Shown: positions 59,119-63,427 of the stretch, one piece after another
How positions within the stretch are numbered: the stretch's first letter is position 1
Layout: each line of letters starts with the position of its first letter
From: Escherichia coli
Lineage (GTDB): Bacteria; Pseudomonadota; Gammaproteobacteria; Enterobacterales; Enterobacteriaceae
DNA length: 64,000 nucleotides
Strand: one strand, 5' to 3'
NCBI RefSeq assembly: GCF_044324785.1
Contig: NZ_CP172127.1
Made by a program: the position numbers and the translations under genes
Notes under the pieces: generated by a model
Seen by the model: the letters and a program-made list of their open reading frames with translations, nothing else
Told to the model about the DNA's origin: nothing
Database searches by the model: none

Positions 59119-59194
59119 TGGCTCCTCTGACTGGACTCGAACCAGTGACATACGGATTAACAGTCCGCCGTTCTACCGACTGAACTACAGAGGA
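59119..59194 (-). tRNA. asnV: tRNA-Asn (GUU anticodon), asnV-equivalent by synteny
   Basis: 76 nt, reverse complement equals TCCTCTGTAGTTCAGTCGGTAGAACGGCGGACTGTTAATCCGTATGTCACTGGTTCGAGTCCAGTCAGAGGAGCCA; cloverleaf with GTT anticodon and encoded CCA. Confidence 0.95.
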
Positions 59195-59449
59195 ATCGTG
59201 TGAACGGGGCGCATATTAATGGCAGTGCATGGTGATGTCAAAGGGTGAAATGCATTTTTTTGTTTGTTTGCTGTCAATTTCAACAAAGTGGTGAGCTTTC
59301 AATCTTATTGGGTAATGAACCATCGTGGTGCATACCCTCCTTTTATAGGGCAGGGGAACGCGACAGCTGATTAAAGGAGCCAATGACGAATCTATCATAA
59401 TCTCTTATTTGACAGTTGGTTAGCTTGTACATCAACGCCAAAATAAAAC

Positions 59450-59465
59450 TGGCAAGCATCTTGCA
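59450..59465 (+). promoter_or_regulatory. Sigma-54 (RpoN) -24/-12 promoter of nac
   Basis: TGGCAAGCATCTTGCA = GG-N10-GC with TGGCA/TTGCA elements, ~55 bp upstream of the nac ATG; nac is known to be NtrC/sigma-54 dependent. Confidence 0.75.
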
Positions 59466-59520
59466 ATCTGGTTGTAAGTAATGGCGGCACTTGGGCCGAT
59501 TCTTAAAAACCGGAGGCAAC

Positions 59521-60438
59521 ATGAACTTCAGACGCCTGAAATACTTCGTAAAAATTGTAGATATTGGTAGCCTGACCCAGGCTGCTGAAGTATTGCATAT
59601 CGCACAACCAGCGCTCAGTCAGCAGGTTGCCACACTGGAAGGTGAGTTAAATCAACAACTTTTGATTCGCACAAAACGGGGCGTTACGCCAACTGACGCC
59701 GGAAAAATTCTCTATACCCATGCGCGGGCCATTTTACGTCAGTGTGAGCAGGCCCAACTGGCGGTGCATAACGTTGGTCAGGCATTATCGGGGCAAGTCT
59801 CGATTGGCTTTGCGCCAGGAACCGCTGCGTCATCCATCACCATGCCCTTATTACAGGCGGTTCGCGCTGAATTTCCGGAGGTTGTTATCTATCTTCATGA
59901 AAATAGCGGTGCAGTGCTTAACGAAAAACTGATAAATCACCAACTCGATATGGCGGTGATTTATGAGCATTCCCCTGTGGCTGGTGTATCCAGTCAAGCT
60001 TTACTGAAAGAAGATCTTTTTCTGGTAGGAACTCAAGATTGCCCGGGGCAAAGCGTTGATGTTAATGCTATTGCGCAAATGAACCTCTTTCTCCCAAGTG
60101 ATTACAGTGCTATTAGACTTCGTGTTGATGAGGCTTTTTCCCTACGGCGACTCACGGCAAAAGTCATTGGTGAAATTGAGTCTATTGCCACGCTTACCGC
60201 AGCGATTGCCAGCGGCATGGGCGTTGCAGTATTACCCGAATCGGCCGCGCGTTCGTTATGTGGCGCAGTAAATGGTTGGATGTCACGCATTACCACTCCT
60301 TCCATGAGTCTCTCTTTGTCATTAAATTTACCCGCCAGAGCGAACTTATCGCCACAGGCACAGGCAGTGAAAGAGTTGTTAATGTCAGTGATGAGTTCTC
60401 CAGTGATGGAAAAAAGGCAGTGGCAATTGGTGAGCTAA
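59521..60438 (+). CDS. nac: Nitrogen assimilation control protein Nac (LysR family)
   Basis: 305 aa from ATG at 59521 (MNFRRLKYFVKIVDIGSLTQAAEVLHIAQPALSQQV... HTH); matches E. coli Nac. Confidence 0.9.
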   Translation: MNFRRLKYFVKIVDIGSLTQAAEVLHIAQPALSQQVATLEGELNQQLLIRTKRGVTPTDAGKILYTHARAILRQCEQAQLAVHNVGQALSGQVSIGFAPGTAASSITMPLLQAVRAEFPEVVIYLHENSGAVLNEKLINHQLDMAVIYEHSPVAGVSSQALLKEDLFLVGTQDCPGQSVDVNAIAQMNLFLPSDYSAIRLRVDEAFSLRRLTAKVIGEIESIATLTAAIASGMGVAVLPESAARSLCGAVNGWMSRITTPSMSLSLSLNLPARANLSPQAQAVKELLMSVMSSPVMEKRQWQLVS

Positions 60439-60539
60439 GCATTATATCGGGATGGAATAAGATGCGGGTTTTTATTATTTGTTATGCCGGGCATTAGACT
60501 TTAACAATAACGGGAAATCTGAACTGCCCGGAGTTTACC

Positions 60540-61520: not shown

Positions 61521-61527
61521 AGAAATT

Positions 61528-61603
61528 TGGCTCCTCTGACTGGACTCGAACCAGTGACATACGGATTAACAGTCCGCCGTTCTACCGACTGAACTACAGA
61601 GGA
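61528..61603 (-). tRNA. asnU: tRNA-Asn (GUU), asnU-equivalent by synteny
   Basis: 76 nt identical to the other two tRNA-Asn copies in this window. Confidence 0.95.
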
Positions 61604-61763
61604 ATCGCTGTTGAGGCACATCTTAACGGCGAAAAATCTTTTGTCAAACCCGATTTTTAAATTTCCCAACTGTTTGCCGTTTCTATCAACAGTTTGTTGC
61701 ATTTGCAGACAATTTGTTGGCGAAAATCTTTGCAGCTTTGCTGATTCTCCCTCATTATTTGAA

Positions 61764-63251
61764 ATGTGGTTTCACTTTCTGCAATTAAGGTCGGCTTTGA
61801 ATATCTCCTCTGCTTTACGCCAGGTTGTTCACGGCACTCGCTGGAACGCCAAACGCAAGAGTTACAAAGTGTTGTTCTGGCGCGAGATAACCCCGCTTGC
61901 TGTTCCTATCTTCATGGAGAATGCCTGTGTCCTGTTGATGGGAGTCCTGAGCACTTTTCTGGTCAGCTGGCTGGGAAAAGATGCGATGGCCGGCGTGGGA
62001 TTGGCGGACAGCTTCAATATGGTCATTATGGCTTTTTTTGCTGCTATCGATCTTGGTACTACTGTCGTTGTGGCATTTAGTCTCGGTAAGCGGGATCGAC
62101 GACGAGCGAGGGTGGCGACGCGGCAGTCATTGGTGATCATGACGTTGTTTGCCGTACTGTTGGCAACGCTTATTCATCATTTTGGCGAACAAATTATTGA
62201 TTTCGTCGCGGGTGATGCCACGACAGAAGTTAAAGCACTGGCGTTGACTTATCTGGAGCTGACGGTACTTAGTTATCCAGCAGCTGCCATCACTTTGATT
62301 GGTAGTGGGGCACTTCGTGGTGCAGGGAATACGAAAATACCGCTACTGATTAACGGTAGCCTGAATATTCTTAATATTATTATTAGCGGCATATTGATTT
62401 ACGGCCTTTTCTCCTGGCCGGGACTGGGATTTGTCGGGGCTGGGTTGGGTTTAACCATTTCTCGTTATATTGGCGCAGTGGCAATTTTGTGGGTGCTGGC
62501 GATTGGTTTTAATCCTGCGCTAAGGATTTCGTTAAAGAGCTATTTTAAACCGCTGAATTTTAGCATTATCTGGGAAGTCATGGGGATTGGTATTCCAGCG
62601 AGTGTCGAATCAGTATTATTTACCAGTGGTCGGTTATTAACCCAAATGTTCGTTGCCGGGATGGGGACCAGTGTTATTGCCGGGAATTTTATCGCGTTTT
62701 CAATTGCGGCTCTTATCAACTTACCCGGAAGTGCGCTCGGCTCTGCTTCTACGATCATTACAGGCCGAAGGTTGGGAGTAGGGCAGATAGCGCAAGCAGA
62801 GATTCAGTTGCGGCATGTGTTCTGGCTGTCCACTCTTGGATTAACGGCCATCGCCTGGCTAACGGCTCCCTTTGCCGGGGTTATGGCATCGTTTTACACC
62901 CAGGATCCACAGGTTAAACATGTCGTTGTGATTCTGATTTGGCTAAATGCTTTATTTATGCCTATTTGGTCTGCCTCATGGGTGCTACCCGCTGGATTTA
63001 AGGGTGCTCGCGATGCACGTTACGCCATGTGGGTTTCTATGTTGAGCATGTGGGGTTGCCGGGTTGTCGTCGGTTATGTGCTGGGAATCATGCTTGGCTG
63101 GGGTGTGGTTGGTGTCTGGATGGGAATGTTTGCCGACTGGGCTGTGCGGGCCGTGCTGTTTTACTGGCGAATGGTTACTGGACGTTGGCTGTGGAAATAT
63201 CCTCGATCTGAGCCGCAAAAGTGTGAAAAAAAGCCAGTTGTGTCGGAATAA
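61764..63251 (+). CDS. yeeO: MATE-family efflux transporter YeeO
   Basis: 495 aa from ATG at 61764 (MWFHFLQ...); 12-TM MATE fold; matches K-12 YeeO; the 546-aa track ORF starts at a TTG inside the adjacent tRNA. Confidence 0.85.
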   Translation: MWFHFLQLRSALNISSALRQVVHGTRWNAKRKSYKVLFWREITPLAVPIFMENACVLLMGVLSTFLVSWLGKDAMAGVGLADSFNMVIMAFFAAIDLGTTVVVAFSLGKRDRRRARVATRQSLVIMTLFAVLLATLIHHFGEQIIDFVAGDATTEVKALALTYLELTVLSYPAAAITLIGSGALRGAGNTKIPLLINGSLNILNIIISGILIYGLFSWPGLGFVGAGLGLTISRYIGAVAILWVLAIGFNPALRISLKSYFKPLNFSIIWEVMGIGIPASVESVLFTSGRLLTQMFVAGMGTSVIAGNFIAFSIAALINLPGSALGSASTIITGRRLGVGQIAQAEIQLRHVFWLSTLGLTAIAWLTAPFAGVMASFYTQDPQVKHVVVILIWLNALFMPIWSASWVLPAGFKGARDARYAMWVSMLSMWGCRVVVGYVLGIMLGWGVVGVWMGMFADWAVRAVLFYWRMVTGRWLWKYPRSEPQKCEKKPVVSE

Positions 63252-63351
63252 ACGACAAAGTGCAGATTATTTCAGCAAACGATTTCAAATTTAAAAAACA
63301 GGCTTTGACATTGTGGATGGGCATCGCTAATATTCGCCTCGTTCTCACGAT

Positions 63352-63427
63352 TCCTCTGTAGTTCAGTCGGTAGAACGGCGGACTGTTAATCCGTATGTCA
63401 CTGGTTCGAGTCCAGTCAGAGGAGCCA
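63352..63427 (+). tRNA. asnW: tRNA-Asn (GUU), asnW-equivalent by synteny
   Basis: 76 nt TCCTCTGTAGTTCAGTCGGTAGAACGGCGGACTGTTAATCCGTATGTCACTGGTTCGAGTCCAGTCAGAGGAGCCA on the plus strand. Confidence 0.95.

Follow-up and report, generated by a model that had tools for sequence, protein, structure and literature searches.

We are highly confident that asnV, asnU and asnW are identical housekeeping tRNA genes of Escherichia coli which double as attachment sites for genomic islands and as portable homology that occasionally recombines. The window, by which we mean the whole analysed stretch of 64,000 nucleotides, carries these three genes together with the following features:

58128–59063, upstream of asnV: ldtA (NCBIfam equivalog match, LdtA)
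59085–59112, no strand: hairpin in the ldtA/asnV gap, terminator-like on both strands
59119–59194, minus: asnV, tRNA-Asn(GUU) (ARAGORN, Rfam RF00005 and synteny with annotated genomes); 3' end towards ldtA; site empty
59213–59241, minus: promoter-like site of asnV, TTGACA-17-TAATAT, 10/12 match
59521–60438, plus: nac, nitrogen assimilation regulator (NCBIfam NF008410 equivalog, 599.5 bits)
60540–61490, plus: cbl, CysB-like regulator (NCBIfam NF009324 equivalog, 682.5 bits)
61493–61519, no strand: hairpin in the cbl/asnU gap, AAAAAGCCCGC-TATAAA-AGCGGGCTTTT; read from the sequence and unlisted by a simple hairpin scan
61528–61603, minus: asnU, tRNA-Asn(GUU) (ARAGORN and Rfam RF00005); 3' end towards cbl; site empty
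61620–61647, minus: promoter-like site of asnU, TTGACA-16-TAAGAT, 10/12 match; within the yeeO invertible segment
61764–63251, plus: yeeO, MATE efflux transporter (NCBIfam NF007562 equivalog, 906.8 bits)
63305–63333, plus: promoter-like site of asnW, TTGACA-17-TAATAT, 10/12 match; within the yeeO invertible segment
63352–63427, plus: asnW, tRNA-Asn(GUU) (ARAGORN and Rfam RF00005); occupied by an island
63412–63427, last 16 nt of asnW: attL, the island attachment core CCAGTCAGAGGAGCCA, which recurs in the near-identical strain N3
63589–64000, plus: P4-type tyrosine integrase, 5' part of 137 codons (Pfam Arm-DNA-bind_3, E=2e-25, and Phage_int_M); truncated by the window end

ARAGORN found exactly three tRNA-Asn genes in the whole window, with the anticodon gtt at position 34, and each scored 72.6 bits in Rfam RF00005 (gathering score 29), which places the cloverleaf above the family threshold. 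The 76-nt sequences are 100% identical and the identity runs 4–7 nt beyond the gene on both flanks, resulting in 84–89 bp of unbroken homology per pair. The original prediction of three identical 76-bp tRNA-Asn genes in mixed orientation was therefore borne out by ARAGORN, Rfam RF00005 and alignment alike, and the NCBIfam equivalog matches agree with it that nac, cbl and yeeO are the genes separating the copies. The repeats are a conserved gene family, which excludes a chance repeat, and they belong to a set of four identical tRNA-Asn(GUU) genes that cluster near ldtA, nac, cbl and yeeO in E. coli, of which only asnT falls beyond the window; the median number of matching places per E. coli genome is four. 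asnV, asnU and asnW are separate transcription units, and a strong sigma-70-like promoter precedes each of them. asnU lies 37 bp past the cbl stop codon, and this gap holds only the hairpin at 61493–61519, a putative bidirectional terminator. No other open reading frames of at least 80 amino acids were found between the known genes of the locus in the window.

The order of the locus is ldtA-asnV(-)-nac-cbl-asnU(-)-yeeO-asnW(+), which corresponds to the E. coli asnV/asnU/asnW synteny, agrees with the annotation of strain N3, and has the same genes, order and relative orientations as the asnT-asnW-asnU-asnV cluster of K-12 (ldtA-asnV-nac-cbl-asnU-yeeO-asnW-yeeN). Relative to the K-12 map, the window presumably represents the reverse complement. 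The window displays the majority, K-12-like, un-inverted state. Among 5,426 complete E. coli genomes, 5,155 match the locus collinearly across 80% or more of its length, with 95–99% identity. Two junctions mark the majority state: ldtA-asnV-nac, present in about 86% of the 5,426 genomes (4,664 in the form seen in the window), and yeeO-asnW-yeeN, present in 4,980 (~92%). The former junction indicates that asnV is empty in the window. The window departs from the K-12 cluster on the yeeN side, which is empty in the 4,980 genomes but is occupied by an island here.

The integrase open reading frame is the first gene of this island and begins 162 bp 3' of asnW on the same strand, an arrangement characteristic of tRNA-borne islands with an Arm-domain, P4-type integrase. 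Within the window an integrase lies directly 3' of an asn gene at asnW only, in keeping with the earlier view that just the third copy is occupied. N3, the closest genome, is 100% identical to the window over 62952–64000, and its 16-nt core CCAGTCAGAGGAGCCA is found again 10.5 kb further downstream, where it forms attR immediately ahead of yeeN; a 24-nt attR query in N3 matched nothing besides the tRNA genes, and the 16-nt core query did match. The N3 island of about 10.5 kb encodes an Rhs core protein, a TPR protein and an integrase annotated as frameshifted. It had also been proposed that each copy is a potential target for asn-specific islands, and in other genomes this was found to hold: JNE181771 has an island at asnU and TC24 one at asnV, and NT1N34 possesses at asnV a tRNA-plus-integrase stretch 96.9% identical to that of the window. 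The 3' ends of the asn genes (16 nt) serve as the attachment site for islands with P4-type integrases, and each copy is usable. Similarly, 16-nt repeats derived from the tRNA 3' end delimit the asn-tRNA islands of Enterobacteriaceae, which may use any asn copy (PMC8209727); for pks, insertions have been published at asnW, asnU or asnV (PMC8209727, PMC8461471). The pks/colibactin island, HPI and the ICEEc1/ICEKp islands also carry a P4-type integrase directly 3' of tRNA-Asn. The island in the window differs from pks and HPI; a pks-type junction gave only an 85.7% overall match to the yeeO-asn-integrase stretch.

The 5,426 complete genomes were queried with synthetic junctions assembled in silico (400+76+400 bp), and a match required a single place with coverage of 80% or more. 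All arrangement counts are raw numbers of genomes in which clonal relatives are counted separately. Three segments bounded by the repeats were found in alternative states:

59195–61603, no strand: deletable segment with nac, cbl and a single tRNA copy, missing from 35 genomes via the asnV/asnU direct repeats
59195–63351, no strand: invertible nac-cbl-asnU-yeeO block, the published "4309-bp asnW-asnU-asnV region" (PMC8209727, PMC8461471, PMC6458436), inverted in 265 genomes
61604–63351, no strand: yeeO invertible segment, comprising yeeO, its upstream region and the asnU and asnW promoters, inverted in 33 of 5,426 genomes

Overall, the alternative arrangements matched end to end, with junctions exactly inside the repeats, in 33 (yeeO inverted), 265 (block inverted), 35 (nac-cbl deleted) and 1 (asnW x asnT inverted) genomes, and the comparison across E. 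coli that had been suggested thereby refuted a single fixed arrangement. The full synthetic yeeO-inverted locus aligned continuously in each of its 33 genomes (0.6%), as anticipated from the proposal that the inverted repeats could invert yeeO, and the synthetic cbl-asn-rc(yeeO 3') junction was intact in 32; LD27-1 displays a clean yeeO inversion with the crossover within the tRNAs. Block inversion, scored by the nac-asn-yeeN junction, was present in 265 genomes (4.9%), including Nissle 1917 and 536. The nac-cbl deletion accounted for 35 genomes (0.6%) and the asnW x asnT inversion for one (0.02%), strain ET5. KL53 contains both the yeeO and the block inversion.

The opposite junction of the block, an empty ldtA-asn-rc(yeeO 3'), was found in one genome, SE15, and was rejected as a test for block inversion; it is misleading since this side is empty in hardly any block-inverted genome (264 of the 265 have no empty ldtA side), an island there being directly confirmed in Nissle only. 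SE15 also appeared to have an inverted duplication that included another, partial yeeO. This was discarded as a probable assembly fault because the extra copy has just 91% identity and lies beside homopolymer-rich sequence, and SE15 was counted among the block inversions, as one lacking an island.

The yeeO inversion appears to have arisen repeatedly, as evidenced by the at least six haplotypes on which the 33 genomes lie: ten yeeO-inverted genomes that were compared fell into six haplotypes, 44–100 SNPs apart over 4,081 bp. One of these haplotypes has an un-inverted sibling with 100.0% identity over 3,100 bp, and LR-25 (yeeO inverted) differs from Nissle (block inverted) by 1 SNP. Identity classes among the inverted genomes (98.5 vs 98.2; 98.3 vs 98.0) proved to be an artefact of joining pieces across two strands; direct alignment showed SHP24 to be the same as CP53 and LD27-1 the same as YZ22MPE54, and haplotypes were counted from direct alignments only, never from identity classes.

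We propose that the 84–89 bp of perfect identity would act as portable homology that recombines now and then. Exchange between the inverted pair asnU/asnW would flip yeeO alone, exchange between the inverted pair asnV/asnW would flip the whole nac-cbl-asnU-yeeO block, and exchange between the direct pair asnV/asnU would delete nac-cbl. The crossover falls inside a tRNA gene, and yeeO retains its upstream region. With the crossover so placed, all products keep intact tRNA genes, each with a promoter and downstream flank; since the tRNAs stay intact and the yeeO upstream region is kept, the rearrangements are expected to be nearly neutral, and we infer that they are neutral. A precedent is provided by inversions between rrn operons or IS elements, in which inverted identical repeats also recombine with break points exactly in the repeats and gene content is kept. 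The asn repeats differ in being far shorter (84–89 bp as opposed to kilobases), and with inverted segments as small as 1.7–4.2 kb, replichore balance is unaffected.

General homologous recombination, and not an integrase, probably makes these rearrangements. Because the repeats are identical, the exact crossover point cannot be located and the sequence cannot separate homologous from site-specific exchange, so both fit the junctions. We considered whether the P4-type integrases of the asn islands (pks, HPI and relatives) made the inversions, acting site-specifically at the att cores of two inverted tRNA 3' ends, and we regard this as unlikely. It would accord with the imbalance between the single genome with the empty ldtA-asn-yeeO junction and the 265 with the other one, read alongside the Nissle island, with the suggestion that inversion accompanies pks acquisition (PMC8209727), and with UTI89, in which the inversion is dynamic and which has such integrases (PMC6458436). 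The 264 genomes without an empty ldtA side could reflect a single inherited event or a role of an integrase rather than frequent homologous exchange. Against it, yeeO is inverted in LD27-1 and CP53 with an integrase at none of the four asn genes, the block is inverted in SE15 without an island, and both the nac-cbl deletion and the recurrence on six haplotypes fit plain homology-driven exchange. Tyrosine integrases of the P4 type normally require that one of the partners (attP, attL or attR) supplies arm sites. This requirement also counts against their action between two tRNA genes.

A stronger version of homologous exchange, equally doubtful in our view, would make the asn cluster a homology-driven shuffling locus whose states (majority un-inverted, yeeO inverted, block inverted, double inverted and nac-cbl deleted) interconvert enough for polymorphism within a culture, with the state being biologically relevant. 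If this were true, the state could lock islands in place, change which tRNA promoter reads into an island integrase, or alter the direction in which replication crosses yeeO, nac and cbl. The yeeO-only inversion, for which a limited literature search gave no earlier description, would then count among these recurrent states, with six haplotypes carrying it here.

A programmed invertible switch, in which the yeeO segment would drive phase variation of yeeO, of the tRNA genes or of the integrase of the island, is very improbable. The asnU and asnW promoters both lie within the segment, so inversion swaps the promoter facing the asnW-side flank (here the integrase), and the apparent repeated origin of the inversion would also suit a switch. 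However, locus annotation and the open reading frames of at least 80 amino acids revealed no dedicated invertase in or beside the segment, and neither the dedicated recombinase nor the orientation-gating promoter of the fimS and Hin/Gin type was found. Since the yeeO upstream region moves along with yeeO, and both tRNA promoters likewise travel with their genes, there is no on/off state; the two promoters are near-equal (both 10/12), and the inverted state is rare (0.6% of genomes). Least credible of all is a recombinationally silent, fixed tRNA family whose database variants are assembly errors, a reading to which the retention of the majority junctions (~92% on the yeeN side, 86% on the ldtA side) and the assembly-fault-like SE15 locus, with its 91%-identical partial yeeO by homopolymer-rich sequence, might seem to lend weight but which is already contradicted, as the same variants recur in related genomes across laboratories, hosts and countries, the junctions align completely and without breaks, the 84–89-bp repeats are much shorter than long reads, and PCR validation of an inversion has been published (PMC6458436).

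Neither the rearrangements between the asn genes nor the islands at them are new in kind. Block inversion has been described before (PMC8209727, PMC8461471), with end points in the same repeats as those recovered here in 265 genomes; islands at all three genes were likewise known (PMC8209727, PMC8461471); and in UTI89 cultures the asnW/asnV inversion was detected and PCR-validated with no recombinase over-expression (PMC6458436). The original prediction overlooked both the existing publications on these phenomena and the fact that inversions in nature more commonly involve the whole 4.3-kb block than yeeO alone. In contrast to the published block inversion, the window is un-inverted, and no description of the yeeO-only inversion (33 genomes) or of the nac-cbl deletion (35 genomes) was found in a limited literature search; the yeeO-only inversion and its apparent recurrence are a minor addition to the published picture. 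The counts provide a population-scale view of the natural use of 84–89 bp of perfect homology; practical uses are modest and current understanding is unchanged. It is worth noting that the labels asnV and asnW vary with the arrangement of the strain, as does the meaning of a phrase like "pks is at asnW"; island sites are therefore better called by their flanking genes than by the name of the tRNA. In the 35 genomes with the nac-cbl deletion, two regulators of nitrogen/sulphur scavenging are lost.

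According to ARAGORN, the 64-kb window holds three tRNA genes and no others, each a tRNA-Asn with the anticodon GTT; the Rfam tRNA model matches the same three (72.6 bits). The neighboring protein genes were assigned by NCBIfam equivalog matches, and the original prediction has the coordinates and description of the tRNA genes right; these are asnV, asnU and asnW.

Features of the tRNA-Asn locus
58128-59063: LdtA, directly upstream
59119-59194, minus strand: asnV, tRNA-Asn (GTT)
59521-60438: Nac
60540-61490: Cbl
61528-61603, minus strand: asnU, tRNA-Asn (GTT)
61764-63251: YeeO, MATE transporter
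63352-63427, plus strand: asnW, tRNA-Asn (GTT)

The 76-nt sequences are identical, and the identity extends 4-7 nt on each side (in the tRNA sense), leaving 84-89 bp common to each pair. Each gene has its own sigma-70-like promoter (10-of-12 match), and the hairpins after asnV and asnU are each common to the convergent protein gene. Of 5,426 complete E. coli genomes, 5,155 have the 4.7-kb locus in collinear form across 80% or more of its length, with 95-99% identity, and there the annotated order is ldtA, tRNA-Asn, nac, cbl, tRNA-Asn, yeeO, tRNA-Asn. A fourth copy, asnT, lies beyond yeeJ, outside the window. The closest genome is strain N3 (99.8% over the locus, 100% over 62952-64000). Positions 58700-63427 were matched at 99% identity or more by only 2 of 5,427 matching database records, N3 being the nearest; the lineage of the source strain is thinly represented among complete RefSeq genomes.

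It had been proposed that these inverted repeats could invert yeeO. In-silico junctions for every possible exchange (400 bp, tRNA, 400 bp) were used as queries against the 5,426 genomes, a genome being counted if the junction matched end to end in one place with at least 80% coverage.

Junctions matched among 5,426 complete E. coli genomes
yeeO-asnW-yeeN (majority arrangement): 4,980
ldtA-asnV-nac (majority arrangement): 4,664
asnU x asnW, cbl-asn-rc(yeeO 3'), rc denoting reverse complement: 32
asnU x asnW, whole synthetic yeeO-inverted locus: 33
asnV x asnW, nac-asn-yeeN: 265
asnV x asnW, ldtA-asn-rc(yeeO 3'): 1 (SE15)
asnV/asnU direct-repeat deletion, ldtA-asn-yeeO 5': 35
asnW x asnT, yeeN side-asn-mtfA: 1 (ET5)

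Since each predicted junction was matched, all inverted pairs and the adjacent direct pair are used in nature. The cross-genome comparison thus bore out the proposal, with yeeO alone inverted in 33/5,426 genomes.

The annotations of LD27-1, SHP24, CP53, YZ22MPE54 and PigCaeca_1 read cbl(+), asn(-), yeeO(-), asn(+), yeeN, a clean inversion. The 265 genomes in which the whole nac-cbl-asnU-yeeO block is flipped include 536 and Nissle 1917, in the latter of which the genes run clbS, int(-), asn(-), yeeO(-), asn(+), cbl(-), nac(-), asn(+), yeeN. An asnV/asnU exchange is seen in 2016C-3878 (retrieved locus L011, 4401-6300; L coordinates are those of each locus), which lacks nac, cbl and one tRNA-Asn copy. 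The eight matches listed, from 35 in total, all have the same identity to the deletion junction, 98.7%, so the deletion genomes may be one clone without these two nitrogen and sulphur regulators. In ET5 (L013 3014-16474), the sole such case in 5,426, the yeeJ-shiA-amn-yeeN block is flipped between asnW and asnT. The asnT 3' flank matches the first ~146 bp 3' of asnW in many genomes (L003 11301-11446; query 254-400), with ~94% identity over the whole 623-bp match, so that homology in this pair exceeds the 76-nt gene. KL53 (L018 3006-7313) is doubly rearranged: the block as a whole is flipped with respect to the flanking sequence, with yeeN adjoining the tRNA on the nac side, and inside the block yeeO is flipped as well; next come an integrase and a gene annotated 'SpnT protein'. 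In TC24 yeeO is inverted and an integrase sits at asnV. SE15 (L004 16617-17865) has a second, partial yeeO, 91% identical and preceded by ~150 bp of homopolymer-rich sequence; this looks less like a real duplication than an error made in sequencing or assembling a 2010-era genome.

The haplotype comparison covered nac-cbl and yeeO, 4,081 aligned bases in all, with yeeO restored in silico. The ten yeeO-inverted genomes retrieved fell into six haplotypes, 44-100 SNPs apart. The commonest (SHP24, CP53) has an un-inverted sibling, ST130, 100.0% identical over 3,100 bp; the un-inverted genome closest to the LD27-1 haplotype reaches 99.1% identity; and LR-25, in which yeeO is inverted and no island is present, is a single SNP away from the block-inverted Nissle. 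One ancient inversion cannot account for the data because the inverted segments differ by 1-2%. Several independent yeeO inversions are the economical reading of these haplotypes, the exact number being a matter for a genome-wide tree.

Homologous recombination is the favoured mechanism, because LD27-1 and CP53 have yeeO inverted without an integrase at any of their four asn genes. A homology of 84-89 bp exceeds the minimum that RecA needs to pair DNA efficiently, although recombination at this length is infrequent, which fits the rarity of the rearrangements. The crossover lies inside the tRNA gene, swapping the 5' half with its promoter, whereas the 3' half and the terminator or island that follows it do not move; all products thereby keep intact tRNA genes, and yeeO its upstream region, so that the variants can be expected to be nearly neutral. 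For the block inversion an integrase-mediated route is possible: 264 of the 265 genomes lack an empty ldtA-asn-yeeO junction, and in Nissle the pks island lies there. This pattern is accounted for just as well by a single inherited event, or a few, within B2 lineages that carry pks.

The further claims, that each copy is a potential island target and that only the third is occupied, agreed with our findings. In its first 137 codons, an ORF starting 162 bp past asnW encodes two domains of P4-type integrases, the Arm DNA-binding domain and the central one. In N3 the same integrase, frameshifted, opens a ~10.5 kb island with an Rhs core protein; the island ends just before yeeN, where the last 16 nt of the tRNA are repeated (CCAGTCAGAGGAGCCA). 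This integrase and the repeat-bounded N3 island establish that asnW is occupied. The N3 island (L001 24889-35270) also has a second integrase fragment and a TPR protein downstream of the Rhs core protein, besides the 16-nt attR; it is probably decaying and immobile. asnV and asnU are empty in the window, since the ldtA-asnV-nac junction is found exactly as here in the 4,664 genomes and between cbl and asnU there is nothing but a terminator hairpin. Elsewhere these copies do carry islands. JNE181771 has one between cbl and asnU, with ATPase, HNH and integrase genes and a 16-nt tRNA remnant left beside cbl. NT1N34 (L010 14025-19448) has at asnV a tRNA-plus-integrase stretch 96.9% identical to that of the window, in which the integrase is a pseudogene, with IS1 and a galactitol-type PTS sugar cassette behind it; the cargo of related integrases therefore varies from one asn copy to another. 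Some type of yeeO-asn-integrase junction occurs in 366 genomes.

Insertion of pks at asnW, asnU or asnV has been described (Auvray et al., 2021; PMC8209727), as has the block inversion (PMC8209727; Wami et al., PMC8461471), and an asnW/asnV inversion was detected in UTI89 cultures, both by sequencing and by PCR, that did not depend on over-expression of Fim recombinase (PMC6458436). The original idea is right, yet it rediscovers published biology, and features of this kind are already known. Limited literature searches did not find the yeeO-only inversion, the recurrence of that inversion or the nac-cbl deletion counts, which are small increments over published work.

GC skew is positive in all 8-kb bins of the window (1-64000), and the plus strand is thus probably the leading strand. 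If so, asnW, nac, cbl and yeeO would be transcribed in the direction of replication and asnV and asnU against it, and inversions would alter the direction of the enclosed genes. The bin at 24001-32000 has a G+C of 0.328 against ~0.5 elsewhere (GC skew 0.167), and is probably the O-antigen gene cluster, judged by its position relative to the his operon.
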